A DNA stretch of 64,000 nt from a virus. Below are positions 11,081-27,950 of this stretch, piece after piece. The translations under genes and the position numbers were made by a program. How positions within the stretch are numbered: position 1 is the stretch's first letter; each line of letters opens with the position of its first letter. The notes under the pieces are model-generated. The model had not been told where the DNA came from. It ran no database searches and saw only the letters and a list, made by a program, of their open reading frames with translations. The stretch is from IMG/VR virus record IMGVR_UViG_3300020421_001669, positions 64,001 to 128,000 of that record, one strand, 5' to 3'.

Positions 11081-11689
11081 ATGACTAAAAAATCAGAAAC
11101 TAATAGACACTATGTCAACAACAAGGAATTTCTTGCCGCTATGACCGAGTATCGGGAGTCCCGATTGGCCGCAGAGGAGAAGGGAGAATCCAAACCGCGT
11201 GTGACAGAGTACATTGGGGAGTGTTTTGTAAAAATCGCAAATCACTTGGCATACAAATCAAATTTTGTAAACTATACATTCAGAGAAGAAATGATTTTGG
11301 ATGGTATAGAAAACTGTATCACATACATTGATAACTTCAATCCAGAAAAGTCAAAGAATCCGTTTGCATATTTTACGCAGATTACATACTATGCTTTTCT
11401 AAGAAGGATACAAAAAGAAAAGAAACAACTTGACACTAAGTACAAGTACATCCAGAACCTTGACATGCAATCTATCATAGATGGTGAAGAGGGACAGGGT
11501 GGTGGTTCTGCTGATTTCATTGAATACATGAAGAAACAAATCGATGAAGCGGAAAAACATAATGCTCAATACGCAGAACAAGATAAGAAGGTTCCTAAAA
11601 GGCGTCCAAAATATCTGGATGACAAAGAAGCAATGAAGATGGCAAAGGAGAAAATACCAGAGTTGAAAGATGCAGAAAAAAGTACTTGA
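11081..11689 (+). CDS. 55: Late sigma factor gp55
   Basis: HYVNNKEFL, NFVNYTFREEMILDGIENC, NPFAYFTQI.YYAFLRRI. Confidence 0.96.
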   Translation: MTKKSETNRHYVNNKEFLAAMTEYRESRLAAEEKGESKPRVTEYIGECFVKIANHLAYKSNFVNYTFREEMILDGIENCITYIDNFNPEKSKNPFAYFTQITYYAFLRRIQKEKKQLDTKYKYIQNLDMQSIIDGEEGQGGGSADFIEYMKKQIDEAEKHNAQYAEQDKKVPKRRPKYLDDKEAMKMAKEKIPELKDAEKST

Positions 11690-11714
11690 CTTTTGCCCTC
11701 AGATAGCGTATAAT
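11686..11714 (+). promoter_or_regulatory. Sigma70 promoter for accessory cassette A
   Basis: TTGACT-N17-TATAAT. Confidence 0.8.
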
Positions 11715-11752: not shown

Positions 11753-12292
11753 ATGAACATATTTTATTTACATAAAACCCCTACCGTATCAGTAAAAATG
11801 CATTGCGACAAACATGTCGTGAAGATGGTTATTGAGTACGCTCAGTTATTGTCTACTGCCCATAGGATGTTGGATGGTACACAATGGATTGATGCATCTA
11901 GTGGTAGGAGAATCAAACGGTGGCGACTAGACAATTCCAACATGGATGGTGTCCTATACAAAGCGTCACATATCAATCACCCATCTGCTATATGGGTTCG
12001 TCAAAACAATTCCCAGTATCAATACATGTACAACATGTTTACTAATCTTTGTGATGAGTACACATACAGGTACGGTAAAATACACATGACTGATTCTAAG
12101 TTGCGTGAATTGTTATCCGAGACACCAAAGAACATACCAACTGGTTCTTGGGTTGAACCACCACAATGTATGCCAGATTACTGTAAACAGTCCAACGCTC
12201 TTGATGGGTACAGAACCTATTACAGAGAAGAGAAAAAGGGTTTCGCTAAGTGGACTAACCGCGATGTACCAGAGTTTATGAATGTCGCATGA
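11753..12292 (+). CDS. Pyrimidine-dimer DNA glycosylase/endonuclease V-like protein
   Basis: MNIFYL..HCDKHVVKM..EYAQLLSTAH, HINHPSAIW, PPQCMP, YRTYY family signature. Confidence 0.8.
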   Translation: MNIFYLHKTPTVSVKMHCDKHVVKMVIEYAQLLSTAHRMLDGTQWIDASSGRRIKRWRLDNSNMDGVLYKASHINHPSAIWVRQNNSQYQYMYNMFTNLCDEYTYRYGKIHMTDSKLRELLSETPKNIPTGSWVEPPQCMPDYCKQSNALDGYRTYYREEKKGFAKWTNRDVPEFMNVA

Positions 12293-13401
12293 TATTATCA
12301 AAAGAAGATACGATATATGCTAGTAAGATAGTTGTTGATTACTTCTCAAAGTTTGAGAGGATTGACGATTACTTTCGTGCAAGAAAAATCGAAAGGGTGA
12401 AGGCATTGCCTCCACCCCTTTTTGGTATGAGCGTAGAGGATGACATGTTCCAGAGTTGGGATATGCATCCAGAAGAAATGAATTTTGAAGTTGTTCAAAT
12501 GAACAACGAGGTGTTTGACCAGATGTTAGAGATGACTGCATCTTTTTCACCAGACCAAGCGCCAGGCAAAGAATTAAAACTGATTGTGAAGGAAACGAAT
12601 ACAAACACAGCAGTTGGTTTTATCAAGTTGGGGTCACCGTTAATAAACTCCAAACCAAGGAATGATTTTCTTGGTGGTGTCCCCGACTTGCCTATCTTCA
12701 ACAAGAGGGCAATCATGGGGTTTAATATAGTTCCAGTACAACCATTTGGATTTAATTATCTAGGTGGTAAGTTACTGGCTGCCATTTGTTGTTCACATGA
12801 AGTACGAAGGATGTTGAACAAGAAATATAATACAGAGTTCTGTTTGTTTGAGACTACATCTTTATATGGTAACATAAAGGGTGCTAGTATGTACGATGGT
12901 ATGAAACCCTTCCTAAGATACAAGGGAGATACCATGTCATCATTCTTACTGACTATGGGTGAAGAGATTTATTTTCATCTACGCGATTGGTTTGAAGAAA
13001 AGAATGGTGGTGAAGTTCTTATTCATAAAGGTGCATCTAGTAGAAAACTAAAATACCAAACAAAGATGATTCAAGTTCTCAAGGCAAATCTAAAAGAACA
13101 TGATACAAAAGCATATGAGATGTTTGATAGTGTAATCAAAAAGTCAACCGATGTGACCACACAAAAAAGATTTTATATGTCAGAGTACGGATACAAAAAT
13201 GTACGCGAAGTTCTTTTAGGTAAGACAGAAACACTAGAAAAGGCAGAAAACTTTGACAGGTTTGAACTAGAAAATGTCATTGATTGGTGGAGAAAGAAAG
13301 CCGTCAAAAGATATGACAACTTGGTATCAGATGGAAGAATACGAAAAGATTTGGAAGTCTGGAATTCTGAAACAATTGACAAAATAGATATAATAAGATG
13401 A
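12289..13401 (+). CDS. DUF4338/DruA-like protein
   Basis: VPVQPFGFNYLGGKLLAAICCSHEV...KY...FETTSLYG...SMYD recalls the DruA/DUF4338 core. Confidence 0.65.
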   Translation: MILSKEDTIYASKIVVDYFSKFERIDDYFRARKIERVKALPPPLFGMSVEDDMFQSWDMHPEEMNFEVVQMNNEVFDQMLEMTASFSPDQAPGKELKLIVKETNTNTAVGFIKLGSPLINSKPRNDFLGGVPDLPIFNKRAIMGFNIVPVQPFGFNYLGGKLLAAICCSHEVRRMLNKKYNTEFCLFETTSLYGNIKGASMYDGMKPFLRYKGDTMSSFLLTMGEEIYFHLRDWFEEKNGGEVLIHKGASSRKLKYQTKMIQVLKANLKEHDTKAYEMFDSVIKKSTDVTTQKRFYMSEYGYKNVREVLLGKTETLEKAENFDRFELENVIDWWRKKAVKRYDNLVSDGRIRKDLEVWNSETIDKIDIIR

Positions 13402-13649
13402 ACATAGAAATTTATTCAAAACCAGATTGTCCCTACTGTGACAGGGCAGTGTTTATTGCACAACAAATAATTCAAGAAACAACACACATCAAGTATGAAA
13501 AGAAAATGTTAGATGAAGATTTTACATTTGACGAATTACTTGAGAAATCACCCAACGCGAAAACCTTCCCACAGATATTTGTGGATGGTGAACTCATTGG
13601 TGGATTTAATGAATTTGAAAAAATGGAATGGTGGGCAGACAGACAATGA
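13398..13649 (+). CDS. Glutaredoxin
   Basis: CPYC, TFPQIF, IGGF. Confidence 0.93.
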   Translation: MNIEIYSKPDCPYCDRAVFIAQQIIQETTHIKYEKKMLDEDFTFDELLEKSPNAKTFPQIFVDGELIGGFNEFEKMEWWADRQ

Positions 13650-14053
13650 AAATAGGATTCACTTGCGGTGCATTTGATTTACTACACGCTGGTCATGTTG
13701 TTATGCTTCAAGAAGCAAAAAACAATTGTGACTTTTTAATTGTGGGATTACAAACAGACCCCACACTGGATAGGTCAGACAAAAACAAACCTGTTCAAAG
13801 TATATACGAAAGATATATTCAGTTGCATGGTATAGAAGCTGTAGATGAAGTTATACCATATGACAGAGAAGCATCTTTGATGGATATACTAACCACAAAA
13901 CCAATTGATATAAGATTTGTAGGCGAAGAATATAAAGATAAACAATTTACAGGACAACACTTGGATATAGAAATTTATTATACAAGTAGGACACACACTT
14001 TTTCTTCTACAGATTTGAGGAAACGAGTACAGAATGCTCCTAAACCAAAATGA
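13646..14053 (+). CDS. Cytidylyltransferase (TagD/RfaE-type HxGH)
   Basis: GAFDLLHAGH, C-terminal RT..FSST. Confidence 0.9.
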   Translation: MKIGFTCGAFDLLHAGHVVMLQEAKNNCDFLIVGLQTDPTLDRSDKNKPVQSIYERYIQLHGIEAVDEVIPYDREASLMDILTTKPIDIRFVGEEYKDKQFTGQHLDIEIYYTSRTHTFSSTDLRKRVQNAPKPK

Positions 14054-14366
14054 TATTGGTGGATATGTTGCTAAGGAAGACGATAGGTATATCGTCAAGG
14101 ACAATCCTTTTGGCAACACACTAGTAATTAGTAGTACGCGACTGCATGGTGGACAGGAAACCACTGGACACGAACATGATGGTCAAGAAGAGGTATATTT
14201 TTTTATTGAAGGTGAAGGTATCATAGAATTGGATTCTTTATACACCCATGTTAAGGCTGGTGATATAGTTCCAATCCAAGATGGTGTCTTTCACAAAGTT
14301 TATAATAGTTCAGATGACAATGATTTATATTTCATTTGTGTGTTTGACGGAAAGAGAAGAGTATGA
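14034..14366 (+). CDS. Cupin domain protein
   Basis: GHEHDGQEEVYFFIEGEG ... GDIVPIQDGVFHKV. Confidence 0.88.
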   Translation: MLLNQNDIGGYVAKEDDRYIVKDNPFGNTLVISSTRLHGGQETTGHEHDGQEEVYFFIEGEGIIELDSLYTHVKAGDIVPIQDGVFHKVYNSSDDNDLYFICVFDGKRRV

Positions 14367-15349
14367 AAATAACATGTGCTAGATTGCGGTCTAATGTAAA
14401 GTATGAAGGCCCACTACAAACGGTACTAGATAGTTTCTTAGAGAACTATGTAAAGTGGATGAGGGCAAACCCCCAACACCAGTACGATACATATAACATA
14501 TCCTTTGATGGTACAAGACCTAAAAGAACACCAGAGACAATAGAATGGGCTGACGCGATAGTAATCCCTAGTGATAGTGAGTTTAGATATCATGGTGAGT
14601 TACAAATGAATCCAAAAGACTTGGCGAAGTCACAGTCTCACATGGATAACATTATACCATTCTTCAAGGACAAACATGTCATTGTCATGAGAAGTGATAG
14701 GGGTGATACTGAACAACTATATAGAGAAGAGACACTACAGAATGTTCCAATAAAATCTTACACAGAGATTGATGAGATTGATTTTCCAGGCAACATTCAT
14801 GGAATGAAGTATCACTTTATAAGAAACAAATTTGGTAACCCACTATTCACTACGGCAAAGAGAACTGACTTTGGATATTGGGGGCGCATGAAGACAGGAT
14901 GTGACCGCGATAAAATTATTAGAAAGATTTACCGTGACCCAGATTTAACCACTTGTTTGATTGGTGGATTTCCATCTGGTATTCAAAGACAATCATCGTG
15001 GATAAAGGATTGGAACCAATTGTATCCCATGTTAGAACCATGTAGATGGACACTGTGTTTCAATTGGAAGGATGAGACTGCTACCACCTCTAGGTATGTA
15101 GAGGCACTTGCAATTGGAATGATACCATTTGTCTGGCAACAATACGACAAGAACAATACATACAACATAGACCCTTGGCAAAGAATAGAAGACTTTGATG
15201 ATTTAAAATCTAAGGTCATGGAACTGAGGGATGAAAGTGTACTAGAGAGAAAACTTGAATTGTATAGAATGAACTATAATGAGAAACTATTATCCCTTGG
15301 TGGATACTACGATATTTTTAAAGGAAAAATGAACAAGGTTATTACATGA
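14363..15349 (+). CDS. GT-B glycosyltransferase, T4 beta-glucosyltransferase-like
   Basis: Resembles T4 Bgt as recalled: MKI..., D..Y.G...R motif, TSRYVEALA, C-terminal ..V.EL....L; sits at the T4 a-gt position between genes 55 and 47. Confidence 0.65.
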   Translation: MKITCARLRSNVKYEGPLQTVLDSFLENYVKWMRANPQHQYDTYNISFDGTRPKRTPETIEWADAIVIPSDSEFRYHGELQMNPKDLAKSQSHMDNIIPFFKDKHVIVMRSDRGDTEQLYREETLQNVPIKSYTEIDEIDFPGNIHGMKYHFIRNKFGNPLFTTAKRTDFGYWGRMKTGCDRDKIIRKIYRDPDLTTCLIGGFPSGIQRQSSWIKDWNQLYPMLEPCRWTLCFNWKDETATTSRYVEALAIGMIPFVWQQYDKNNTYNIDPWQRIEDFDDLKSKVMELRDESVLERKLELYRMNYNEKLLSLGGYYDIFKGKMNKVIT

Positions 15350-16398
15350 AGATTGCTCTAGTTAACGATACACACTTTGGTGCGAGGTCAGACAGTTTAC
15401 CGTTTGATGCGTACTTTAAGAAATTCTATGATGAGTTTTTCTTTCCCACTCTCGCGGAAAAAGAAATCAAGACTGTCATGCATTTGGGTGATATCTTTGA
15501 TAGAAGAAAGTATATGAATTATAACACACTTAAAAGTTGTAAGGAGTATTTCTTTGACCAAGCAAAAGACCTAAATATAGATATGCATGTGGTGCCTGGC
15601 AACCACGATACATATTTTAAAAACACTAACAATGTCAACGCGCCAGAACTTCTACTGCAAGAGTATGAAAATGTCAAAGTATATCCCGAAATTACTGAAC
15701 TGGAATTCGATAACAGAAAGATTCTATTCGTTCCTTGGATATGTAGCGATAACTATAGTAGTACTATGGAAATGGTCGGCAGAACAGACGCAAAAGTTTG
15801 TTTCGGACATTTCGAGTTTTCTGGGTTCCAAATGTACGCAGGCATGCCGAATGAGCATGGAATGGATCATACTGCCTTTGAGCACTTTGATTTGGTTTGC
15901 AGTGGTCATTACCACCATCGTAGTAGCAGGGATAATGTGGTCTATCTTGGTAATCCTTATGAAATTACATGGTCGGATTTTAATGATGCACGAGGGTTTA
16001 ATATCTATGACACAGAAACGAATGAATTAGAGTTCATGCAAAATCCTTATAGAATGTTTCATAAGATATTCTATAATGATGTTGACGATAATGTTGAGTA
16101 TGATTTGACAGGATTAGTTGGGGGATGTGTAAAGGTCATCGTAGTAAAGAAAGAAAACTTTACAAAGTTTGATAAACTTATTGACTCTTTGTATAGTTGT
16201 AATCTAGTAGAACTGAAAATTATCGAAGACTTCTCAGAGTTTGAGGATAATGCTGTTGGGGATATAGATTTAAAACTGGATGATACCATTACATTGTTAA
16301 ATGATTATGTTGATAACACTGTCACTGATTTAGATAAGGACAGGTTAAAGTCTCTACTACAAACGCTGTATGTAGAGGCACAACATCACGAGAATTAA
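15346..16398 (+). CDS. 47: Recombination endonuclease subunit (Mre11-like)
   Basis: DTHFG, GDIFDRR, GNHD, GHFE, SGHYH. Confidence 0.95.
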   Translation: MKIALVNDTHFGARSDSLPFDAYFKKFYDEFFFPTLAEKEIKTVMHLGDIFDRRKYMNYNTLKSCKEYFFDQAKDLNIDMHVVPGNHDTYFKNTNNVNAPELLLQEYENVKVYPEITELEFDNRKILFVPWICSDNYSSTMEMVGRTDAKVCFGHFEFSGFQMYAGMPNEHGMDHTAFEHFDLVCSGHYHHRSSRDNVVYLGNPYEITWSDFNDARGFNIYDTETNELEFMQNPYRMFHKIFYNDVDDNVEYDLTGLVGGCVKVIVVKKENFTKFDKLIDSLYSCNLVELKIIEDFSEFEDNAVGDIDLKLDDTITLLNDYVDNTVTDLDKDRLKSLLQTLYVEAQHHEN

Positions 16399-16401
16399 TT
16401 T

Positions 16402-18072
16402 ATGATTTTATTTGAAAAGATAAGATGGAAAAACTTTCTGTCTACAGGGAATAGTTTTACCGAAATAGAGTTTAATCGAAGTCCAAGTACATTGGTAGTT
16501 GGTGAGAATGGAAGTGGTAAATCCACAATGCTTGATGCTGTTTGTTTTGCATTGTTCAATAAACCATTTCGTAAGATTAGTAAGACACAACTAATCAACT
16601 CTATCAATAACAAAAAACTGATAGTTGAGATTGAGTTCAGAGTAGGACAGAAAGAATTCAAAGTCATTCGCGGTGTAAAACCAAGTGTGTTTGAATTGTA
16701 TTGTGACGGACAGATGTTAGACCAAGATGCTGCTGTAAGAGATACACAAAAATATCTTGAAGAAAGTATTCTCAAGATGAACTTTAAATCTTTTACACAG
16801 ATTGTTATACTGGGTAGTGCTTCATTTACACCATTCATGCAGTTGCCTACAGCATCTCGCCGTGAAATTATTGAAGACATCCTAGACATTGAAATATTTA
16901 CAACGATGAATCAAGTCTTGAGAGATAAGATTGCTGTTCTAAGGGATGAGATTAGAGATGTAGAAACAGAAGTAGAGGTAGCAAAGTCGAAGGCCAATGT
17001 TCAAAGAAAATATATTGACCAGTTGGAACGCGACAAAAAAATTAAAGTCGATAAAATTAAGGAGAAAATAGATGAAATCATCGAGGCGTCTACTGAACTT
17101 GAAATCAAACTTTCAGAGGCAACAGCAGAGAAGGAGAGTTATGATGATCCAAAGCAACGCAAACAAAAACTGGATACTCTCAAAGACAAACTCGACTCCA
17201 ATCTCAGAAAGGCAAGAAAAGAACTCGACTTCTACCACAACACAGAAGAGTGTCCAACCTGTAAACAAGGACTAACTCACGATTTCAAAGAAGAAAAACA
17301 AAAAGAAAAGTCTGATAGGATAGGTGAGTTAGAGGAAGGATTAGAAAATATGAATTCCGAATATGATTCTGTTTATGAGGCAATGGAAAAGTATGACTCT
17401 ATATCTACGGTAATACAAGAAACACAAAGTGAAATTATTACACAGGAAAGATATCGAAATAGAATGACGCTGGAATTGAATGAAGCAGAAACTAATGTTG
17501 CAGACATCGATGAAGAAAAAAGTAAACTTAAAGATTTAGCAGTTGACTTGACAACAAAAAATAAATTGAAAACTGATAAGGGTGAGGAACAACATTACAA
17601 TACTGCTGCTACTAGTCTGCTCAAGGATACAGGAATTAAGACTAGAGTTATAAGACAGTATCTACCAATCATCAATCAGTTGGTAAATAAATATTTGGCC
17701 GCGATGGATTTCTTTGTTCACTTTGACTTGGATGAAAAGTTCAATGAGACAATAAAGTCCAGACATAGAGACAAGTTTTCTTACTCTAGTTTTAGTGAGG
17801 GTGAGAAACAAAGAATAGACTTGGCATTACTATTCACATGGCGAACAATTGCTAAGATGAAGAACAGTGCCAGTACCAACCTGTTATTACTTGATGAAGT
17901 ATTTGACAGTTCCTTGGATAACAATGGTGTTGATTATGTAATGAACCTATTGAGTACCATAGGAGAGGAAACCAATGTGTTTGTGATTTCTCACAAAGGT
18001 GACCAGTTGTTTGATAAATTTAGAAATCAGATTAAATTTGAAAAGATTAGAAACTATAGTGTGATGTCATGA
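16402..18072 (+). CDS. 46: Recombination endonuclease ATPase subunit (Rad50-like)
   Basis: GENGSGKS, CPTC zinc hook, FSEGEK, LDEVFD. Confidence 0.96.
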   Translation: MILFEKIRWKNFLSTGNSFTEIEFNRSPSTLVVGENGSGKSTMLDAVCFALFNKPFRKISKTQLINSINNKKLIVEIEFRVGQKEFKVIRGVKPSVFELYCDGQMLDQDAAVRDTQKYLEESILKMNFKSFTQIVILGSASFTPFMQLPTASRREIIEDILDIEIFTTMNQVLRDKIAVLRDEIRDVETEVEVAKSKANVQRKYIDQLERDKKIKVDKIKEKIDEIIEASTELEIKLSEATAEKESYDDPKQRKQKLDTLKDKLDSNLRKARKELDFYHNTEECPTCKQGLTHDFKEEKQKEKSDRIGELEEGLENMNSEYDSVYEAMEKYDSISTVIQETQSEIITQERYRNRMTLELNEAETNVADIDEEKSKLKDLAVDLTTKNKLKTDKGEEQHYNTAATSLLKDTGIKTRVIRQYLPIINQLVNKYLAAMDFFVHFDLDEKFNETIKSRHRDKFSYSSFSEGEKQRIDLALLFTWRTIAKMKNSASTNLLLLDEVFDSSLDNNGVDYVMNLLSTIGEETNVFVISHKGDQLFDKFRNQIKFEKIRNYSVMS

Positions 18073-18602
18073 GTGAATTAGAATTATTACCATTAAACCA
18101 TCCAATGATGAAGGTTCCACCAAATGAGTTTGATTTTGAAAAAGAAGATGCAAAGGAACTCGCTGACCTAATTTGGAAGAGACAAAGAGAACTTGGTGGG
18201 GCAGGATTGTCAGCAAACCAAGTGGGACGCAATGCAAAAATGTTTACTATGGGTGTAGACAGGGGTGAAGACTATAACTATAAAAGAGTATTGTTTAATC
18301 CACAGTTAACCGCGTATAGTGAAGAGACCGATGTCATGGAAGAAGGGTGTCTCTCGGCGCCTGGCATCACGCTGATGGTGCGTAGACCTATCAAGTGTAC
18401 CATGAGTTACAAAAACGAAGACAATGAAATGGTGTTGGAAGAGTTCGATGGTCTGTGGGCCAGAGTTGCATTACACGAGTATGACCACATGTTAGGTCAA
18501 AACTTTACTCAAAGAGTATCTAAAATTAAATTGGACAGAGCCATAAAAAAGGCAAAAAAATTCCACAAAAAATTAAAACGAGCTATTGAAAATAATAAAT
18601 AG
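18069..18602 (+). CDS. def: Peptide deformylase
   Basis: GAGLSANQVG, EGCLS, HEYDH. Confidence 0.93.
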   Translation: MSELELLPLNHPMMKVPPNEFDFEKEDAKELADLIWKRQRELGGAGLSANQVGRNAKMFTMGVDRGEDYNYKRVLFNPQLTAYSEETDVMEEGCLSAPGITLMVRRPIKCTMSYKNEDNEMVLEEFDGLWARVALHEYDHMLGQNFTQRVSKIKLDRAIKKAKKFHKKLKRAIENNK

Positions 18603-18629
18603 TATCACATATGAATAGAGACTGTAACT

Positions 18630-19106
18630 ATGGCCTATAGTAAGGAAGTAGTAAAAAGGTTTGAAGAAGTAACCAATAATCCACAAGCACATGGCGTAGG
18701 TAGATTTGACCCTAACGACCCACATGTTGCTACAGGACTCACTGGAGCGCCTGCCTGTGGTGATGTTATGAAGTTAGATTTAAAACTTGACCCAGAAACA
18801 GATGAAATTTTAGATGTCAAGTTTAAAACATATGGATGTGGTAGTGCTATTGCTAGTTCTAGTATGTTTGTTGAAATGCTAACAGGACTTACAATCCAAC
18901 AGGCAAAAGAAATAAAGGATAAAGATATTGCGGATGCACTTGAATTACCACCCATTAAAATACATTGTTCTGTATTAGCAGAAGATAGTATTAAAAGAGC
19001 TATTCAAGATTGGGAAGAAAAGAAAGCAGGCCGTAACTCTACTTGGTTAGAGAAAATGGGTGCTAAACCTAGAGAGGGAGAAAAAATTGCGGATAACATT
19101 AACTGA
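18630..19106 (+). CDS. iscU: Fe-S scaffold IscU
   Basis: GAPACGDVMKL, KTYGCGSAIASSS, LPPIKIHCSVLAED. Confidence 0.95.
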   Translation: MAYSKEVVKRFEEVTNNPQAHGVGRFDPNDPHVATGLTGAPACGDVMKLDLKLDPETDEILDVKFKTYGCGSAIASSSMFVEMLTGLTIQQAKEIKDKDIADALELPPIKIHCSVLAEDSIKRAIQDWEEKKAGRNSTWLEKMGAKPREGEKIADNIN

Positions 19107-20197: not shown

Positions 20198-22633
20198 ATG
20201 GATATAACTTCTAAATCATACCTTGCGAAACTCCTCGCCACTGAGGATGTTTCGATTGAACATAGGAATGTACCTACCGCGTATTTCGACTTGAAGTCTA
20301 GGAAAATTGTACTTCCCAATTGGAAGGACATGCCTGATTTCTTGTATGATTTATTGATTGGTCATGAAGTTGGTCACGCTCTCGTAACTCCCGCTGAAGG
20401 TTGGCACTCTGCCTCTTCTAGTAAGGGTGCAAATTTCAAATCATTCTTGAATGTTGTAGAAGATGTTAGGAATGAGAGACTAGTTAAAATCAGATATCCA
20501 GGCTTGGTCAAGTCATTCTATAAGGGATATCAAATGCTTTACAAGAAAGACTTTTTCGGTCTTTCAAAATTACAAAAGACTCCCCAAGAATTACCACTAA
20601 TTGATAGAATCAATCTTCACGCTAAGGTTGGTGCTTTCCTTACTCTACAATTCACTGCTGAGGAACAGGTCATACTTGACAAGTGTTTCGCTGCTGAGAC
20701 TTGGGATGAGGTTGTCGCCATTGCTGAGGAGTTGTATGACTTCTCTAAGACTGAAGACGCGATGCAAGATCTTTTAGATGAACAAATGGGTATGCCCCAG
20801 TTCGGTGAAGGTGAAGATGAAGATGAAGATGACTTCGCCCAAGATGAGAATGGCGAATGGTCAGAATCACCATACGGTGAAGAAGAGTCAGATGAAGGTG
20901 AGTCCGAGTCTGGTGAAGATACTGAAGAAACTGAAGAAGGTGAAGATAGTGGCGCTCAGTCTGGTGAAGGTGAAGAGACTGAAGAAGAAACTGAAGAGAC
21001 TACTCCTTCTAAAGAAGAGTCAAAAGATACTGAAGATTCTGCTGAGTCTGGTGATAGACCAGAAGATGGCGATATCATGGAAGGTTCTGATAATACTGAA
21101 GGGTACAATCCCCACGATTTCGATGACGCGGAACCTAAGTCATTTACCGATGAAGCGTTTAGAGATGCTGAATCAAACCTAGTAGAGTCTGGTAAGACCA
21201 ATGGTGTTGTTACCGCTACTATGCCTAAGTTCAAGTCTAAGTACTTTGTTTTCCCAACTACCGATGTTTGGCCTGCCCAAGATTTCAAGTATGTTTGTGG
21301 TGGAAGGTATGATGACATTCCTGCTGGTTCTGCTACGGATGTAGAGAAAACTTTGCTTGATGAATTCATGCAAAGAAACAAGGGTTCAATCAATCAACTA
21401 GTTATGCAGTTTGAGATGAAGAAAAAAGCCACCCTATTGAGGAAGGCTCAAGTCAACAAAACTGGTAAGTTGAATGAAGATAAGTTGTGGGCATACAAGT
21501 TGACTGAAGACTTGTTCCTATCAAGTACTACTGTGCCAGATGGTCAGAACCATGGCATGATGATGTTTGTAGACTTCTCTGGTTCAATGGGTAGACACAT
21601 GGCTGGTACTATTGAACAAACACTAATTCAAGTTGCCTTCTGCAAAAAAGTTGGTATCCCATTTGATGTGTACGGTTTTTCAAACTGCGCTAACTCTCTC
21701 CAAAGTGAGAAGTTCGGAAATGCTTCTAGGGGTTCTGCTTTTCAATCTGCTAATGATGGTGAGTTGTTTATTGAGTCTGGTGGGTTCGCTCTGCTTCAGT
21801 TGATATCTTCTGAATTGCCTCAGAGTGAGTACAATAGATGTTTCAAAAAGTTACTTGGTTACAAAACTTCATTTGAGTGGAGAGATATGAAACCAAGAAT
21901 GGAAAGATATGATGTTCCTTACCATCTTTATCTTGGGTCTACTCCGCTGTCAAGTTGTATGATAGTTGGTGCTAAGATTGCTAAACAGTTCAAGGAAAGA
22001 AACAGAATTGAAGTTATGAACACGATTGTTCTTTCCGATGGTGGAAACACTTCTGACTTAGAAGTAATCTCTGAAGGTCAATATGAAGAGAGTGGTAGGT
22101 TCAGATATGAAAATGCCATCTCAAAAGAGTTTGGTTATGGATACGGTGAAGAGAAAACCGAGATTGGTAAGTTCCAATTGAAAGGCAACGGTTTGTCAGT
22201 TACCACTAACATCAAAGGGATGTATGGAACAAACTACGGTAGGGTCTCTTATGAAAGTGCTACTGCTGTTACTTTCGACTACTACAAAAAGTTTGTTGGT
22301 TCCAGAATAGTTCACTTCTTCCTAGTTGATAACAACATTAGAGAAGCGAGACAGGCATGGACTGATATGACAGGAACCTTTGCCGAGTATGATGAAAACT
22401 TTGATAAAGAAAAGTCAACTAACTGGAAGCACAATAACTTCATGTCTTGCCAGTCTAAGTTGGGAAGTGATGCTTGTTTCATTCTGAAGGGTGCTAAGTC
22501 TCTTAATGAAGAAGCAGAGTTTGAAGTCAGTTCTGATAGTAAGGCTGACATTTTGAGAGGGTTCAAGAAATTCCAGAAAGGCAAGTCCAATTCCAGACAG
22601 TTCTTGAACAGATTTATTGATGAGGTCGCGTAA
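20198..22633 (+). CDS. Metallopeptidase-acidic linker-vWA protein (CobT-like)
   Basis: HEVGH and NVVEDVR motifs, about 100 aa Glu/Asp linker, MIDAS DFSGS, LSDG. Confidence 0.85.
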   Translation: MDITSKSYLAKLLATEDVSIEHRNVPTAYFDLKSRKIVLPNWKDMPDFLYDLLIGHEVGHALVTPAEGWHSASSSKGANFKSFLNVVEDVRNERLVKIRYPGLVKSFYKGYQMLYKKDFFGLSKLQKTPQELPLIDRINLHAKVGAFLTLQFTAEEQVILDKCFAAETWDEVVAIAEELYDFSKTEDAMQDLLDEQMGMPQFGEGEDEDEDDFAQDENGEWSESPYGEEESDEGESESGEDTEETEEGEDSGAQSGEGEETEEETEETTPSKEESKDTEDSAESGDRPEDGDIMEGSDNTEGYNPHDFDDAEPKSFTDEAFRDAESNLVESGKTNGVVTATMPKFKSKYFVFPTTDVWPAQDFKYVCGGRYDDIPAGSATDVEKTLLDEFMQRNKGSINQLVMQFEMKKKATLLRKAQVNKTGKLNEDKLWAYKLTEDLFLSSTTVPDGQNHGMMMFVDFSGSMGRHMAGTIEQTLIQVAFCKKVGIPFDVYGFSNCANSLQSEKFGNASRGSAFQSANDGELFIESGGFALLQLISSELPQSEYNRCFKKLLGYKTSFEWRDMKPRMERYDVPYHLYLGSTPLSSCMIVGAKIAKQFKERNRIEVMNTIVLSDGGNTSDLEVISEGQYEESGRFRYENAISKEFGYGYGEEKTEIGKFQLKGNGLSVTTNIKGMYGTNYGRVSYESATAVTFDYYKKFVGSRIVHFFLVDNNIREARQAWTDMTGTFAEYDENFDKEKSTNWKHNNFMSCQSKLGSDACFILKGAKSLNEEAEFEVSSDSKADILRGFKKFQKGKSNSRQFLNRFIDEVA

Positions 22634-22745
22634 GTGGTTGAATTTAAAGGGAAAGAAAATGAAAAAAAATTCATTTTGGCCCTTGACTTCTGCCCCCAAA
22701 TATGGGATCATGATCAAGTAATTGAGAAAAAGTGAGAGGTAAATT
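22631..22745 (+). promoter_or_regulatory. Early promoter class copy 2
   Basis: TAAGTGGTTGAAT...TTGACTTCTG...ATATGGGATCATGATC...GTGAGAGG. Confidence 0.75.
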
Positions 22746-23981
22746 ATGAGTGTAAAACAGAAAGAACAGTTCCTTCAGGCCCTTGCCGATGTGAACAATT
22801 CCGCGTCTGCTGTGTTCTCCAAGGCGGAGGCAATGCAGATTGCAAAATCAAATGGGTTGAAAAATCCCATGTGGTTTTTTAAAGAGTGTAAAGTTGGTAG
22901 GAACCAATTTTCGCCAAACATGGCAACTCTAATGACAGTGGGTAATACTGCTCTCAAACCTGTCGCCGCTGAGGCGACTGCCCTTGAAGAGTCAGTATCT
23001 ACCCTTGAACCAATTGAGACAATTCAGTCTCAAGCATTGGATGCCAAGATTGTAAAACAGGCAAAACTTGCGGTGGAAATAGAAAACTTAGTTCCAGATT
23101 CAGATAGTACTTATGTCCCATTTGGGTTCCATAAAGATTTGGTGAACATCATCAAGTCTGGTATGTTCTATCCTACTTTCATTTGTGGTCTATCTGGTAA
23201 CGGTAAGACTATGATGGTGGAACAGGTTTGTGCCAAACTCAAGAAAGAAGCCATTAGGGTTAACATCTCTATCGAAACCGATGAAGATGACTTGATTGGT
23301 GGTAACACTCTCGTGGATGGTAATGTGGTTTACAGGGAAGGCCCTGTGCTGACTGCCATGAAGAGAGGTGCGATTCTCATTCTGGATGAGATTGATAGGG
23401 GTTCTAACAAGTTGATGTGCCTTCAGGCAATCCTTGAAGGGAAACCTTACTTCAATAAGAAGTCTGGTGAGGTTGTCACGCCTGCTACTGGTTTCAATGT
23501 GATTGCTACTGCAAACACAAAAGGTAGGGGTTCCGATGATGGTAAGTTCATGGGTGCTCAAGTTCTGGATGAGGCGTTCCTAGAAAGGTTCGCTATCACG
23601 GTTGAACAGGAATATCCTTCTAGTGTTCAAGAGAAGAAAATTGTCATGAACAAAATGGGTGTTGCTGAGTGTGTCGATGAAGACTTTGCTGATAAGTTGG
23701 TCATGTGGGCTGACATAATCAGAAAGACTTTCTACGAAGGTGGAATCGATGAGTTGGTTTCTACCAGAAGGTTGGAACACATTGTCAAGGCATACGCCAT
23801 GTTCTCTGATAGACTCAAGGCAATTCAGTTGTGTGTCAATAGGTTTGATACCGACACCAAGTCTGCCTTCATTGACCTTTACACTAAGGTTGATGCTGGT
23901 GCCACGGTTGAAGAAATCATGGACAATCCTACCGATGGTTCTGAAGATAACAACCCAGAGGCTGATGACTATGACTTTTAA
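22746..23981 (+). CDS. MoxR/CobS-like AAA+ ATPase
   Basis: GLSGNGKT, LDEIDRG, TANTKG, LDEAFLERF, STRRL. Confidence 0.92.
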   Translation: MSVKQKEQFLQALADVNNSASAVFSKAEAMQIAKSNGLKNPMWFFKECKVGRNQFSPNMATLMTVGNTALKPVAAEATALEESVSTLEPIETIQSQALDAKIVKQAKLAVEIENLVPDSDSTYVPFGFHKDLVNIIKSGMFYPTFICGLSGNGKTMMVEQVCAKLKKEAIRVNISIETDEDDLIGGNTLVDGNVVYREGPVLTAMKRGAILILDEIDRGSNKLMCLQAILEGKPYFNKKSGEVVTPATGFNVIATANTKGRGSDDGKFMGAQVLDEAFLERFAITVEQEYPSSVQEKKIVMNKMGVAECVDEDFADKLVMWADIIRKTFYEGGIDELVSTRRLEHIVKAYAMFSDRLKAIQLCVNRFDTDTKSAFIDLYTKVDAGATVEEIMDNPTDGSEDNNPEADDYDF

Positions 23982-24764: not shown

Positions 24765-24792
24765 GTGATGTTTAATTTGATTGAGGTATATT

Positions 24793-25443
24793 ATGAAACT
24801 ATCCAAAACTACTTTGGAGCTGTTGAAAAACTTTGCTACGATTAATACCAATTTATTGGTTAAGTCTGGTAGTAGTTTATCAACTGTGTCCGCTTCAAAG
24901 TCTATTCTTGCAAAGGGCACAATTGAGGAGAACTTCCCACAGGAGTTCGCAATCTATGACTTAAATCAATTTCTATCTTTGGTCACAATGAGTGAAGATA
25001 CTGAGATTGATTTTTCCGATGATTATCTGACATGCAAATCTAATGCTGGAAGGTTCAAGTTTTATTACGCGGAACCATCTATCATTGTGGCAGCTCCAGA
25101 TAAAGAAATTGAAATTGATTCTTTCTATCAATTCAATATTACCAAAGAACAACTCAACACTATCTACAGGGCAGCAAGTGTAATCTCTGCTCCTACTCTT
25201 AGTGTTGTCGCCAATGCTGGCAATGTGGTTCTGAGTGTGGGTGACCCGAATACTCCTAAGAGTAATTCATTCACCACTGACATTGGTAATGCTAATGTAG
25301 AGTTTGATGCTAGACTAGGAATTGAAAACCTAAAAGTAATCGCGGATGATTATGAGGTTACTGTTTCCCAGAAGAAAGTATTTAAATTTTCTAACGCTAA
25401 GAGAACCTACTTCTTGGCACTTGAACCGAGTTCAAATATCTAA
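24793..25443 (+). CDS. 45: Sliding clamp
   Basis: MKLSKTTLELLKNFATIN, FAIYDLNQFL, YFLALE. Confidence 0.95.
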   Translation: MKLSKTTLELLKNFATINTNLLVKSGSSLSTVSASKSILAKGTIEENFPQEFAIYDLNQFLSLVTMSEDTEIDFSDDYLTCKSNAGRFKFYYAEPSIIVAAPDKEIEIDSFYQFNITKEQLNTIYRAASVISAPTLSVVANAGNVVLSVGDPNTPKSNSFTTDIGNANVEFDARLGIENLKVIADDYEVTVSQKKVFKFSNAKRTYFLALEPSSNI

Positions 25444-25610
25444 TGTATTGGATTGAAGGAATGATTGCCGTCTATGGAATGATACTTTCTTTCATGGCCG
25501 GCTGGTTGATGCCTAGAGGCAATTTTATTAGAACTTCCCAGTTATGGTTAACCAAAAAAATATACAACTGGTTAGCACATGACAAGGAAAAATTGAAGGA
25601 GAAAAAATGA
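25443..25610 (+). CDS. Small membrane protein (55 aa)
   Basis: TAATG coupling to gp45 and ATGA overlap with the next gene; hydrophobic N-half. Confidence 0.55.
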   Translation: MYWIEGMIAVYGMILSFMAGWLMPRGNFIRTSQLWLTKKIYNWLAHDKEKLKEKK

Positions 25611-26230
25611 CAGATTTTAATATTGAAGTTGGTCAAAAACTACCAGAAGATATCACTTTCCACATGAGGGTAAGGGATGAAAAGATGGTAGAACAGGGGG
25701 ATGAGAATCCATATCAGTGGCAACTAGTAAACTCAACTGACTTGTTCAAGGACAAGAGGGTTGTATTGTTTGCTTTGCCTGGCGCGTTTACTCCGACTTG
25801 TTCAACCTATCAACTACCAGATTACGACAACAATTATGAGTTGTTCAAAAGGTCTGGTATCGATGAGGTATATTGTCTATCTGTTAATGACAGTTTTGTT
25901 ATGAACAAATGGGGCGATTGGTTGGACATTGATAGTGTAAAACTAATTCCAGATGGAAGTGGTTTCTTTACAGAGGCTATTGGTGCGTTGGTAAAGAAAG
26001 ACAACTTAGGATTCGGGCCAAGGTCTTGGAGATATTCAGTCCTAGTAAATGATGGTGTTGTAGAAAAGGCATTCATCGAAGAGGGATGTGAAGATGATTG
26101 TCCCGCTGACCCATACGAAGTTTCTGACCCATACACAATGATGCAATATATTCAAAACGAAAGTCCTGTAGGACAACAGTATGAGTTGAATCTTGAAGAT
26201 GGATTGGGAACAGAAGAACAGGTTGGATAA
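25607..26230 (+). CDS. Peroxiredoxin (Prx5/PGdx type)
   Basis: LPGAFTPTCS, SVNDSFVM, RSWRYS. Confidence 0.93.
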   Translation: MTDFNIEVGQKLPEDITFHMRVRDEKMVEQGDENPYQWQLVNSTDLFKDKRVVLFALPGAFTPTCSTYQLPDYDNNYELFKRSGIDEVYCLSVNDSFVMNKWGDWLDIDSVKLIPDGSGFFTEAIGALVKKDNLGFGPRSWRYSVLVNDGVVEKAFIEEGCEDDCPADPYEVSDPYTMMQYIQNESPVGQQYELNLEDGLGTEEQVG

Positions 26231-27014
26231 AGTTGATTACGATATAAAACCTTTATCAAAGGAACTCGCAATCGATTTTATTCAGACGCATCATTATTCA
26301 CCAATGATGCCTAAACTGACAAAGCATTATCTAGGGTGCTTTCTCAATGGTGAACTTGTAGGTGTTTTGACTTTGGGCTGGGGTACTCAACCTAGACAAA
26401 CAATCAATAAGATGTTTACTGGTCTTGAGTCAAAACACTATTGGGAAATTGGTAAGATGTGCATGACAGATGACATGCCAACCAATTCAGAATCACAAAT
26501 GATATCCCAAACAGTCAAGTGGATAAAAGAAAATACACCCGATGTATTATTTCTTTACACAATGGCAGATGGTATCATGGGCAAATGTGGATATGTATAT
26601 CAGGCCAGTAATTTTTTATACGGTGGAAAATACTTCACTCAAGTCTACGAGATAAATGGAGAAAAGATTCACCCTAGAACGACAGGAAAACTATGTGAAG
26701 AGAACGCAAGGTTCTCTGGTAGAGATAAAATTTTTTGGTTGACTTCTGACTTTATGAAAGAAAAGGGAATCAAAAAAATTGAAGGGTATATGTTCAGATA
26801 TATCTTTCCACTAAATAAGAAAGCAAAAAGACTATTGAAAAAATCAAATATGGAATGGACTAGAAATTATCCAAAAGACCATGACTTAAAATGGTTTGAT
26901 AAAACTGGTAAACCCAAATTTGAAATTGAACAACCCCACTTTTCATATGATGAAGTATTACATAATTCTAAGAACATCGATGGTGGTGGTGCATCTTTAA
27001 GAGGTATATTATGA
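26193..27014 (+). CDS. Mu Mom-like DNA-modifying acyltransferase
   Basis: HHYS, LVGVLTLG, P.NSESQMIS, AD...G..GYVYQASNF.Y.G; true start probably near 26223. Confidence 0.75.
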   Translation: MKMDWEQKNRLDKVDYDIKPLSKELAIDFIQTHHYSPMMPKLTKHYLGCFLNGELVGVLTLGWGTQPRQTINKMFTGLESKHYWEIGKMCMTDDMPTNSESQMISQTVKWIKENTPDVLFLYTMADGIMGKCGYVYQASNFLYGGKYFTQVYEINGEKIHPRTTGKLCEENARFSGRDKIFWLTSDFMKEKGIKKIEGYMFRYIFPLNKKAKRLLKKSNMEWTRNYPKDHDLKWFDKTGKPKFEIEQPHFSYDEVLHNSKNIDGGGASLRGIL

Positions 27015-27778
27015 GCAAAATTATTTTAGTGTCTGGTGGATTTGACCCACTACATAAAGGACACCTTGAGTTGTTGAAAGAAGCAAAAGCAATGGGTGAC
27101 TATCTATCAGTTGGATTGAATAGTGACGCATGGTTAACTAGAAAAAAAGGTTCGCCTTTCATGACATCATGGGACAGGATGGATATGTTGATGGAGATGG
27201 AATGTGTTGACCATGTAGTTCCCTTCAATGATGATGACGATACCGCGAAAGATTTTATAGACAAAGCAATTGCTAGTTTTGGATTAGAACATAAGTTTGT
27301 ATTTGCTAATGGTGGTGACAGGACAGAAGAAAACATTCCAGAGATGGAACTAAGAGAAAAGTTTTCCCATGCTCATTTAGAGTTTGCATTTAATGTTGGT
27401 GGTGATAAAGAGTATACTAGTAGTAGTGTAAATAAGATAGACAGAGCTTGGGGACAGTACAAAGTTATACACGAAGAACAAACTGCTAAAGTTAAACTGT
27501 TAACTATCGATATTGAAAAGGCAATAAGTTATCAGAGGCATTTTTACAGAGGTGAAATTTGGCATCTTGTTTCTGGACAGGCAATGATTAAAACCAGTAA
27601 AGGTAGTCCAAGTAATTACACATACGATTACTTGACCTCTGGACAACACTTTAGTGTTGTGCCATATGAATGGCATCAAATAAAAAATATAGGGAGAGAA
27701 CCTTTGAGGATTATTGAAATTCAACACGGTTCTTATGTCGAAGAAGATGATATTGAACGCGAGGAGATAATTCATTGA
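27011..27778 (+). CDS. Cytidylyltransferase fused to cupin (PMI type II-like)
   Basis: SGGFDPLHKGH, FANGGDR; C-terminal RAWGQY..ISYQRHFYRGEIW..WHQI..IIEIQHG.Y.EEDDIER. Confidence 0.88.
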   Translation: MSKIILVSGGFDPLHKGHLELLKEAKAMGDYLSVGLNSDAWLTRKKGSPFMTSWDRMDMLMEMECVDHVVPFNDDDDTAKDFIDKAIASFGLEHKFVFANGGDRTEENIPEMELREKFSHAHLEFAFNVGGDKEYTSSSVNKIDRAWGQYKVIHEEQTAKVKLLTIDIEKAISYQRHFYRGEIWHLVSGQAMIKTSKGSPSNYTYDYLTSGQHFSVVPYEWHQIKNIGREPLRIIEIQHGSYVEEDDIEREEIIH

Positions 27779-27948
27779 GAAAGAAGGGTATAAAGGCAAG
27801 ACGAATGGTTGCCCTAGAAAACTTGGAGAAGGCAAAGTTCACTCCAAAACAGGTAAGGTCTGGCAAAAAAATGGTAGACCGTTCTGAGGAAACTTGGAAC
27901 AAGAATAGAGAATACCAGATAGAGGTGCTTAAGAAAAGAGTACAGTAA
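27775..27948 (+). CDS. Small basic protein (57 aa)
   Basis: TTG start with GAGGAG SD; fills the gap exactly. Confidence 0.5.
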   Translation: MRKKGIKARRMVALENLEKAKFTPKQVRSGKKMVDRSEETWNKNREYQIEVLKKRVQ

Positions 27949-27950
27949 TC

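Follow-up and report, generated by a model that had tools for sequence, protein, structure and literature searches.

Gene content of the locus

The window, a 64,000-nucleotide stretch covering positions 64,001 to 128,000 of the viral record IMGVR_UViG_3300020421_001669, carries on its + strand a gene (14363..15349) for a 328-aa GT-B glycosyltransferase (GT), a remote homologue of T4 beta-glucosyltransferase (BGT), which ranks first in profile searches as well as in structural comparisons. The open reading frame runs from ATG to stop without interruption, and stops are abundant on the opposite strand. At E<=1e-3, marine metagenomes hold 902 homologues, which fall into 146 clusters at 50% identity, and the best 120 of the 902 are 65-94% identical to the protein. 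This breadth shows that the gene is conserved and excludes a chance ORF, so that the 328-aa frame of the original prediction is real. Among the phages of the collection searched with tblastn, the sole match is the cultured Pelagibacter phage HTVC008M, the homologue of which (gp104) is 39% identical, and megablast of the GT region returned short gp46 matches to Prochlorococcus phages and nothing else.

The gene is part of a chain on the + strand that is preceded by a putative sigma-70-like promoter (11686..11714; TTGACT, 17 nt, TATAAT), called purely as a consensus match at 11 of 12 positions; the next terminator-like site on this strand lies at 20232. The overlapping genes are headed by one for a 179-aa protein (11753..12292) that belongs to PHROG 624, 'DNA binding protein' (phrog_624, E 4e-51), has no match in a Pfam search, and in the gp55-gp47 clade is conserved ahead of the module. 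Its stop overlaps the start of a gene for a 370-aa Mom-like protein with a GNAT fold (12289..13401) of the DUF4338 (DruA-type) family (PF14236, E 1e-7, above the cut-off; phrog_19197, E 8e-151). There follow, on the same strand, an 83-aa glutaredoxin (13398..13649; PF00462, E 7e-12), a 141-aa cytidylyltransferase-like nucleotidyltransferase (13628..14053; PF01467, E 4e-15), which is a candidate maker of the donor, and a 110-aa Cupin_2 protein (14034..14366; PF07883, E 3e-11), a metal-binding cupin that may be an isomerase or an oxygenase. The nucleotidyltransferase and cupin that had been described as adjacent to the GT gene are both present directly upstream of it. Below the cut-off, the nucleotidyltransferase matches RfaE domain II, TagD and ethanolamine-phosphate cytidylyltransferase, while the cupin has weak PDB matches to small cupins.

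On the downstream side, the GT stop overlaps the start of gp47 (SbcD-like; 15346-16398, +; phrog_100, E 4e-106), which is followed by gp46 (SbcC-like; 16402-18072, +; phrog_77, E 2e-171), and this arrangement in one orientation places the module among DNA replication/recombination genes. The slot among gp55, gp47 and gp46 is the one in which T4 has alpha-gt: on the T4 map, alpha-gt occupies the 55-47 gap and beta-gt lies between 42 and uvsX. Neither this positional match nor the DUF4338 gene, the most conserved partner, had featured in the original prediction.

Relationship to T4 beta-glucosyltransferase

Searches with the single GT sequence gave nothing usable. No match was obtained in Pfam (E<=10), the PDB or NCBIfam, the BGT model PF09198 included, PF09198 likewise found nothing when the genome was searched in all six frames, and PHROGs returned two non-significant matches only (E 0.098 and 0.16). 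The link to BGT became visible with family profiles and structure only. When run against the PDB with hmmsearch, the GT family profile had T4 BGT as its sole match (E 5.7e-4), and hhalign of the GT family against a 26-member BGT family gave a probability of 96% (E 3.4e-9) over 162 columns. With the N-terminal domain by itself, hhalign against BGT gave E 0.0055 in local mode, the informative one here, global alignment being meaningless. PF09198 is also the label of the nearest Pfam-named Atlas clusters to the GT family.

The AF2 model of the protein (pLDDT 94.4) shows two Rossmann-like domains in a GT-B fold, with a C-terminal helix crossing back. In Foldseek searches with this model, all of the top 12 matches were T4 BGT or AGT (BGT TM 0.62-0.66), and exhaustive structural alignment ranked BGT first (Z 18.8, 285 aa, rmsd 3.6), followed by T4 AGT (Z 16.2) and then by the next GT-B (Z 15.3). 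We also asked whether any non-DNA GT-B family matches better and saw the opposite, with the two T4 DNA glucosyltransferases at the top. In agreement with these data, the three segments of T4 Bgt that the original prediction had cited are all found in the T4 b-gt translation and are paired by profile methods with the same GT segments, and its call of a divergent beta-glucosyltransferase-like gene holds by profile and by structure. Taken as profile and model evidence, this indicates that the 328-aa protein shares a remote but genuine ancestry with T4 BGT. A reading as a TagF-type CDP-glycerol glycerophosphotransferase or an exostosin GT47 enzyme was dropped, no Pfam family matching at E<=10; these alternatives had come up because a neighbouring gene is TagD-like and because of automatic naming, 'Exostosin GT47' being an automatic cluster name only.

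The likeness to T4 Bgt (CAZy GT63, PF09198; 351 aa against 328 aa here) extends to the active site. We take the UDP-binding residues of BGT to be Arg191, Arg195, Arg269 and Glu272. With conservation scored over 44 GT family members, R244 (43/44) aligns with BGT R269 and E247 (44/44) with E272, K177 (K or R in 41/44) aligns with R191, and the invariant R182 falls one column off R195; the Gly-rich phosphate loop aligns as well. The candidate catalytic residue D112 is acidic in every member (Asp in 37, Glu in 7) and follows beta-4 (residues 105-110), as D100 does in BGT, with the local alignment of the N-domain placing it one column off D100. Around these two residues GT 'KDKHVIVMRSDR' parallels BGT 'KSKIYYLFTDIR', and the N-terminal strands and beta-3 motifs of the two proteins correspond as well. 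Unlike T4 Bgt, to which it is about 15-17% identical and the Pfam model of which it does not match, the GT lies in the 55-47 slot rather than beside gene 42 and has a Mom-like GNAT and a nucleotidyltransferase as linked partners.

Conservation of this kind bears on the possibility that the protein descends from a glucosyltransferase but has lost its catalytic activity or only binds DNA. Such a protein would fit a genome that lacks a known acceptor pathway, but clusters down to 23% identity show little or no variation at the donor-binding and candidate catalytic residues, and the linkage to an NDP-donor-making enzyme is conserved too; we regard this reading as extremely improbable.

T4 Agt (CAZy GT72), the second-best structural match, shares with the GT its map position between the late sigma gene 55 and 47. 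Its profile match to the GT family is marginal (E 0.0068 over 46 columns), however, and it differs in being a retaining enzyme of 400 aa. The shared position may reflect an insertion hotspot rather than orthology.

Partner genes across related loci

Going beyond the original prediction, comparison with related loci shows that the GT gene belongs to a mobile, portable module. Among 55 close loci, which were counted without dereplication and in which adjacency among related phages is partly inherited synteny, a DUF4338 partner lies within 2.6 kb of the GT gene in 52, in at least three genomic slots, and in 34 of the 55 a cytidylyltransferase-like gene sits between the two. Glutaredoxin, found in 7/55, is therefore accessory; a Cupin_2 gene is found in 4/55. 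More distantly, 20 of 26 loci have either DUF4338 or a methylase-like family (c4), and the GT partners in distant clades are an N6/N4-methylase-like protein, a PLP enzyme, 2OG/JmjC oxygenases or a TET-associated glycosyltransferase, the last of which adjoins the GT gene in locus L107. A natural fusion seen once (P0190) joins the GT to ParB_N and N6_N4 DNA methylase. The oxygenase-type neighbours are a JmjC/cupin protein (HTVC008M gp105), 2OG-FeII_Oxy_3 (L126), 2OG-FeII_Oxy_5 (gp102) and Asp_Arg_Hydrox (L008); the DUF4338 protein of HTVC008M is gp106. When c4 was tested as a possible divergent DUF4338, hhalign showed no relationship between the two (probability 1.4%), and this genome lacks homologues of the PLP-enzyme and c4 partners seen in the distant clades.

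The constant partner, DUF4338, resembles phage Mu Mom in fold. Its AF2 model (pLDDT 77) has Mu Mom (8bv8) as its top structural match at Z 10.0, a lead of less than 1 Z over other GNATs (Z<=9.2). BLAST and a PDB profile search detected no sequence similarity to Mom, and hence the link rests on the fold search. Mom differs further in acting alone, its product being N6-carbamoylmethyladenine. DUF4338 has been called a GNAT domain (PMC10853773), a 50%-identical cyanophage homologue of the present protein has been annotated as Mom-like (PMC12801897), and Mom itself is described as moving glycine from Gly-tRNA to N6 of adenine (PMC13219725). The DUF4338 family is also the larger one (6074 homologues against 902 for the GT) and is carried by cyanophages without the GT; DUF4338 therefore does not need the GT.

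The nucleotidyltransferase raises the question of a target other than DNA. Together with this RfaE/TagD-like enzyme, the GT might glycosylate a host envelope polymer, a tRNA, a small metabolite or a protein of either phage or host; the envelope polymer would be LPS or teichoic-acid-like, with activity during infection. The best family matches of the nucleotidyltransferase are indeed LPS-heptose and CDP-glycerol/CDP-ethanolamine enzymes. In a survey of pelagimyophages, the authors took the host envelope to be the target of phage glycosyltransferases and rfaE, interpreting them as LPS-modifying (PMC7029224), and Mom-type GNATs bind tRNA too (PMC13219725). In addition, about 65% of the phage GT contigs in a large survey are without a recognised base-modification neighbour, and many GT-Bs with non-DNA acceptors match our model at Z 13-15, the lipid, sugar and protein GT-Bs lying 3-4 Z below BGT. 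Against this, the two best structural matches and the sole sequence-profile match are DNA glucosyltransferases, and the gene sits in the replication/recombination block, outside the tail-fibre and LPS hypervariable region. The GT is also fused to, or adjoins, DNA methylase-like, TAGT and Mom-type genes, and its family is basic relative to the phage proteome (median pI 8.1 versus 5.6). A non-DNA target seems somewhat unlikely to us.

Acceptor and donor

To our knowledge, all characterised phage DNA glycosylation builds on a hydroxylated pyrimidine (5hmC, 5hmU or 5hoC), supplied either by a homologue of thymidylate synthase or by a dioxygenase of the TET/JBP type. Extending the search from the window to the whole record (161,406 bp, 91% complete), we found no gene for gp42/ThyA, TET/JBP or a C5-methylase: the record has no ThyA/gp42-family match, and neither Tet_JBP (PF12851) nor the C5-methylase family (PF00145) gave a match at E<=1. 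In five related genomes, which include HTVC008M and of which three are rated 100% complete, the ThyA family is absent and PF12851 has no match at permissive thresholds. As had been proposed from the window, gene 43 abuts uvsX with no gene 42 between them (gp43, 32706-35210; UvsX, 35213-36277), and thymidylate synthesis falls to ThyX (57172-57855). An 811-aa ORF (20198-22633) considered as gp43 was rejected, being a peptidase. In the absence of a dCMP hydroxymethylase, the acceptor cannot be 5-hmC formed ahead of replication.

A classical DNA glycosyltransferase could nevertheless find its acceptor in 5-hydroxymethyluracil or 5-hydroxymethylcytosine if an oxygenase that has escaped recognition formed these bases within the polymer, DUF4338 then being an unrelated neighbour. 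The neighbouring cupin or the phage's 2OG-Fe(II) oxygenases would be the candidates for that step. Post-replicative phage thymine/5mC dioxygenases that feed glycosyltransferases are established (PMC8256090, PMC13229309, bioRxiv 10.1101/2023.12.21.572611), oxygenase-type genes lie beside the GT gene in several clades (gp105, L126, gp102, L008 and Cupin_2 here), and the ParB_N domain fused in P0190 is consistent with such a role. Yet Tet_JBP has no match at permissive thresholds in any of the six genomes, no C5-methylase was found in this one, a 2OG dioxygenase would be expected to be larger than the 110-aa cupin, and a cupin accompanies the GT in 4/55 close loci as opposed to 52/55 for DUF4338. 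We consider this explanation quite improbable. The MT/5mYOX clusters of Burke 2021 and Pyle 2023 differ from the present module in the same respect, since they encode a C5-methylase and/or a TET/JBP-type dioxygenase together with the GT, those of Pyle 2023 depending on a C5-methylase plus a TET-like dioxygenase for 5hmC, and none was detected here.

Our preferred reading, held tentatively and with a little less than even confidence, is that of an active Bgt-related GT-B enzyme that most likely glycosylates the phage's own DNA post-replicatively, as part of a Mom-like/nucleotidyltransferase module and on an acceptor other than hmC. The DNA target and the identities of the acceptor and of the donor sugar are what we infer here. 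In such a scheme, the GT gene would be transcribed together with recombination genes within its portable module, and the upstream DUF4338 GNAT would place an initial adduct on a base of double-stranded DNA. The cytidylyltransferase-like enzyme would convert a sugar- or polyol-phosphate to an NDP-activated donor, the cupin and glutaredoxin might help in this clade, and the Bgt-like enzyme would move the sugar onto a hydroxyl or amide of the DUF4338-made adduct, with the Asp/Glu at position 112 as the base and Arg244/Glu247 as the nucleotide clamp. The acceptor of other clades could be written by the N6/N4 amino-methylase-like protein together with a 2OG/JmjC oxygenase and a PLP enzyme. The known chemistry of Mom leads to a carbamoylmethyl group, which has no hydroxyl, and we know of no glycosylated derivative of the Mom product.

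A close parallel in gene content is contig 53 of Pyle et al. 2023 (heptosyl-5hmC), where a T4-bGT-like GT-B lies beside a CTP-transferase-family enzyme. A cytidylyltransferase and a T4-bGT-like GT-B enzyme were reported there to place heptose onto 5hmC in DNA, the GT-B/CTP-transferase pair being needed with a kinase/phosphatase for a non-glucose sugar (bioRxiv 10.1101/2023.12.21.572611).

Overall, a clear Bgt relative is kept in hundreds of marine T4-like phage contigs without either of the enzymes known to supply a hydroxylated pyrimidine, tied instead to a Mom-like GNAT or an amino-methylase-like gene, which points to an undescribed sugar modification of DNA. If the GT acts on DNA, its acceptor should therefore be of a new kind. 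As the original prediction suggested, acceptor and donor may both be new, a suggestion that the conserved Mom-like and amino-methylase-like linkage strengthens.

A more specific proposal, which we find distinctly doubtful, is that the DNA of these abundant marine myoviruses, HTVC008M included, carries a glycosylated purine or amino-group adduct, with a Mom-like GNAT or, in other clades, an N6/N4 amino-methylase-like enzyme plus a 2OG/JmjC oxygenase decorating the amine of adenine or cytosine and a Bgt-like enzyme adding the sugar cap. The adduct would be an aminoacyl-derived or N-hydroxymethyl group on the exocyclic amine of adenine or cytosine, and the cap would be drawn from a phage-made NDP donor. 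Were this true, the pathway that leads from 5mC through 5hmC to glycosyl-5hmC would have a counterpart on the adenine side. More generally, if the GT acts on DNA, much of the myovirus DNA in the ocean may be sugar-modified, which would bear on virome sequencing bias and on restriction/CRISPR evasion in SAR11-type hosts, and new enzymes for DNA labelling might be gained. With HTVC008M in culture and a module of only ~3 kb, the question lends itself to a direct test.

Finally, a second cassette lies on the + strand between gp45 and gp44 (25607..29681). It encodes a peroxiredoxin, a bona fide Mom-family protein (26193-27014; PF25680, E 4e-59; Mu Mom 8bv8 match, E 9e-24) and, as judged from domain matches, a fusion of a nucleotidyltransferase with a mannose-6-P-isomerase-type cupin (27011-27778) and a radical SAM-SDR fusion (27951-29681). 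The nucleotidyltransferase half of the first fusion shares 42% identity over 72 aa with the nucleotidyltransferase upstream of the GT, and its cupin half shows no detectable similarity to the cupin there. The chemistry of this cassette is possibly related to that of the GT module. The true Mom gene adjoins the GT gene in some relatives, lying 1-3 kb downstream of it in other phages.

Remote homology to T4 beta-glucosyltransferase

The glycosyltransferase (GT) ORF (14363-15349, + strand; opposite strand closed) has an open reading frame and lies in the window, bases 64001-128000 of the record of a T4-like marine myovirus (161,406 bp, 91% complete, 37.6% G+C). Single-sequence searches of Pfam, PHROGs, NCBIfam and the PDB returned no significant match. 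Homologues in marine metagenomes numbered 902, forming 146 clusters at 50% identity, and the sole cultured carrier found was Pelagibacter phage HTVC008M, whose gp104 is 39% identical to GT. When the profile of a 44-member family alignment was run against the whole PDB, T4 beta-glucosyltransferase (Bgt) was the only match (E 5.7e-4), and hhalign aligned the GT family with a 26-member Bgt family across the whole C-terminal domain (probability 96%, E 3.4e-9; N-terminal domains alone, E 0.0055). A protein-language-model search also placed PF09198, the Bgt family, as the nearest Pfam-named clusters; the sequence link to T4 alpha-glucosyltransferase (Agt) was marginal.

The AlphaFold model of GT is very confident (pLDDT 94.4), and T4 Bgt or Agt filled all of the top twelve Foldseek matches in the PDB. 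Exhaustive structural alignment against 48,161 chains ranked Bgt first (Z 18.8, rmsd 3.6 over 285 residues) and Agt second (Z 16.2), with ordinary GT-B enzymes from Z 15.3 down, in agreement with the original prediction of a divergent Bgt-like enzyme. The three Bgt motif pairs offered for that prediction were all found in the real T4 sequence, and the programs aligned the same segments.

The roles of the Bgt residues reportedly come from structures by Moréra and Larivière. The active site is intact in GT: R244 and E247 are invariant and align with Bgt R269 and E272, the GT segment 'DFGYWG..K' pairs with 'LDVIYGGSFR' of Bgt so that K177 falls on R191, and the invariant R182 lies one column off R195. 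After strand beta-4, GT KDKHVIVMRSDR parallels Bgt KSKIYYLFTDIR, an alignment that would put D112 (Asp or Glu in 44/44 family members) at or beside the position of the catalytic base D100 (catalytic role cited in bioRxiv 10.1101/2023.12.21.572611). Because profile, structure and active-site alignments all point to Bgt, GT is a remote Bgt homologue beyond the Pfam family boundary. It represents a new, abundant Bgt-like GT-B sub-family, in genomic surroundings from which no DNA glycosyltransferase has been described.

Gene setting and the missing hydroxymethylcytosine route

The gene order around GT is UvsW, gp55, a PHROG-624 'DNA binding' protein, a DUF4338/DruA-type protein (370 aa, 12289-13401), glutaredoxin, a cytidylyltransferase-like NTase (141 aa, 13628-14053), a cupin (110 aa, 14034-14366), GT, gp47, gp46, peptide deformylase and a NifU-like protein. 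The GT start overlaps the cupin stop and its stop overlaps the gp47 start, within a chain of overlapping genes running from 11753 through gp46. A good match to a sigma-70-like promoter (11686-11714) precedes this chain, with no + strand terminator-like site downstream before 20232. The 55-47 gap is filled by alpha-gt in T4, and GT therefore occupies the alpha-gt slot while resembling beta-gt.

Directly after gp46, peptide deformylase (PF01327) and the NifU-like Fe-S scaffold (PF01592; together 18069-19106) are both kept in relatives. An 811-aa ORF in the 20198-23981 region, for which a DNA polymerase reading was dropped, is a conserved cyanophage/pelagiphage 'peptidase'; a CobS/AAA_5 ATPase follows it, and the same pair lies downstream of the GT/DUF4338 module in HTVC008M-like genomes.

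T4 has imm, gene 42, beta-gt and segA between 43 and uvsX, whereas here gp43 (32706-35210) abuts UvsX (35213-36277), as had been claimed. The genome-wide check proposed for gp42, TET/JBP or a C5-methylase was negative throughout: six-frame searches of the whole record returned nothing for the ThyA family, Tet_JBP or C5-methylases, and ThyX is encoded, as had also been stated. ThyA-family and Tet_JBP searches likewise gave no matches in five other GT-carrying genomes (three rated 100% complete; HTVC008M included), and the missing hydroxymethylcytosine (hmC) route is thus a property of the lineage, not an artefact of the absent 9% of the genome.

Gene linkage among relatives

Among 80 close IMG/VR loci (65-94% identity), 55 had enough upstream DNA for neighbour counts. 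A DUF4338 gene lay within 2.6 kb of GT in 52 of these, mostly directly upstream, with NTase (34/55), glutaredoxin (7/55) and cupin (4/55) as other partners; some close loci carry a Mom gene 1-3 kb downstream. The GT and DUF4338 pair turns up in three or more genomic positions, among them gp55-gp47 and the stretch directly behind gp45/gp44, and HTVC008M has a fourth order (gp46, GT, JmjC/cupin, DUF4338). The HTVC008M record (L123; NC_020484 99535-100656) holds two DUF4338 genes: gp106, beside the Bgt-like gene, is 32% identical to the window protein, and the second, beside DNA polymerase, is closer (51%). Between gp55 and gp47, HTVC008M-like loci (L110 3075-4565; also L111, L113, L114, L124, L125) encode a flavoenzyme of the tryptophan-halogenase family (496 aa; PF04820, E 1e-98).

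The distant set comprised 51 loci (25-34% identity to the lead sequence of the distant sub-family). DUF4338 is the immediate GT neighbour in 14, while a methylase-like family (355-546 aa, N6_N4 DNA-methylase domain, SPPY motif; PF01555, E 8e-7) and a PLP enzyme (~250 aa; PF00291, E 3e-12) each adjoin GT in 18. Further neighbours in 14 are 2OG-Fe(II)/JmjC oxygenase-type proteins. Classical hmU/hmC glycosylation would call on an unrecognised oxygenase, a route we consider improbable. With both flanks available, 20/26 distant loci had a DUF4338 or methylase-like gene no more than 2.5 kb away. Among the exceptions is the locus of an 808-aa ORF on a high-GC metagenomic contig (L008 5651-8077), which fuses an N-terminally short Bgt-like domain, ParB_N and an N6_N4 DNA methylase. 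Across whole genomes, 4/5 carriers have DUF4338 and the fifth has the methylase-like gene instead; true Mom occurs in only 1/5.

Downstream of the fusion ORF lie an Asp/Arg-hydroxylase-type oxygenase and a PLP-enzyme-like gene. A TET-associated glycosyltransferase (TAGT; PF20691, E 1e-12) directly follows the Bgt-like gene at L107 4974-5813, and occurs also at L132; the cluster includes two methylase-like genes besides a PLP enzyme, and no TET was seen within that locus. In some distant clades (L129, L131, L134-L136 and L138) the Bgt-like gene is followed by a conserved protein set (~260, 85, 240 and 130 aa), none of it significantly matched in Pfam, whose members may be further pathway components.

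Partner proteins and the acceptor

To our knowledge, Mom chemistry leaves no hydroxyl, which counts against an acceptor written by DUF4338. DUF4338 has been classed as a GNAT domain (PMC10853773); the model of the 370-aa protein (pLDDT 77) best matches Mu Mom (8bv8, Z 10.0), in a near tie with ordinary GNATs (Z 9.2 or less). A cyanophage homologue 50% identical to it was independently named Mom-like (PMC12801897), and Mom has recently been shown to load glycine from Gly-tRNA onto adenine N6 in double-stranded DNA (PMC13219725). NTase matched RfaE domain II, TagD and ethanolamine-phosphate cytidylyltransferase only below threshold, too weakly to assign it a product. A direct precedent for pairing NTase with GT is a metavirome cluster whose cytidylyltransferase and 'T4-bGT-like' GT-B put heptose on 5hmC in DNA; unlike the window phage, it relies on a C5-methylase together with a TET-like enzyme (bioRxiv 10.1101/2023.12.21.572611). 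In that study ~65% of the phage GT contigs were left aside for want of a recognised base-modification neighbour.

We infer that GT acts on DNA from its nearest relatives, its location within the replication genes, the fusion to a methylase, neighbours of TAGT and Mom type, and its basic pI (8.1 for the family vs a proteome median of 5.6). Gene linkage suggests that the acceptor might be written by one of two partners, the DUF4338 protein or the amino-methylase-like one, a module-based model that we favour tentatively. Counting against it, DUF4338 is ~7x as widespread as GT and found without GT in cyanophages, the adjacency is partly inherited synteny, and the NTase resembles envelope-pathway enzymes, as pelagimyophage genes of its type have been read (PMC7029224). 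An acceptor other than DNA would sit with that envelope reading and poorly with the methylase fusion and replication-gene setting; we think it rather doubtful. The GT module offers a testable chance of a new DNA modification class.

A second modification-type cassette (25607-29681) lies between gp45 (24781-25443) and gp44 (29653-30603). Besides a peroxiredoxin, it encodes a protein that matches the Mom family strongly (26193-27014; PF25680, E 4e-59) and Mu Mom 8bv8 at E 9e-24, a cytidylyltransferase/mannose-6-P-isomerase-type cupin fusion and a radical SAM/SDR fusion. This brings the phage to two genes of the Mom superfamily and two sets of NTase plus cupin. Outside the window, at genome positions 151988-152686 (L011 1108-1806), a 232-aa Asp/Asn-beta-hydroxylase-type 2OG oxygenase (PF05118, borderline score) belongs to a family reported as core to pelagimyophages.
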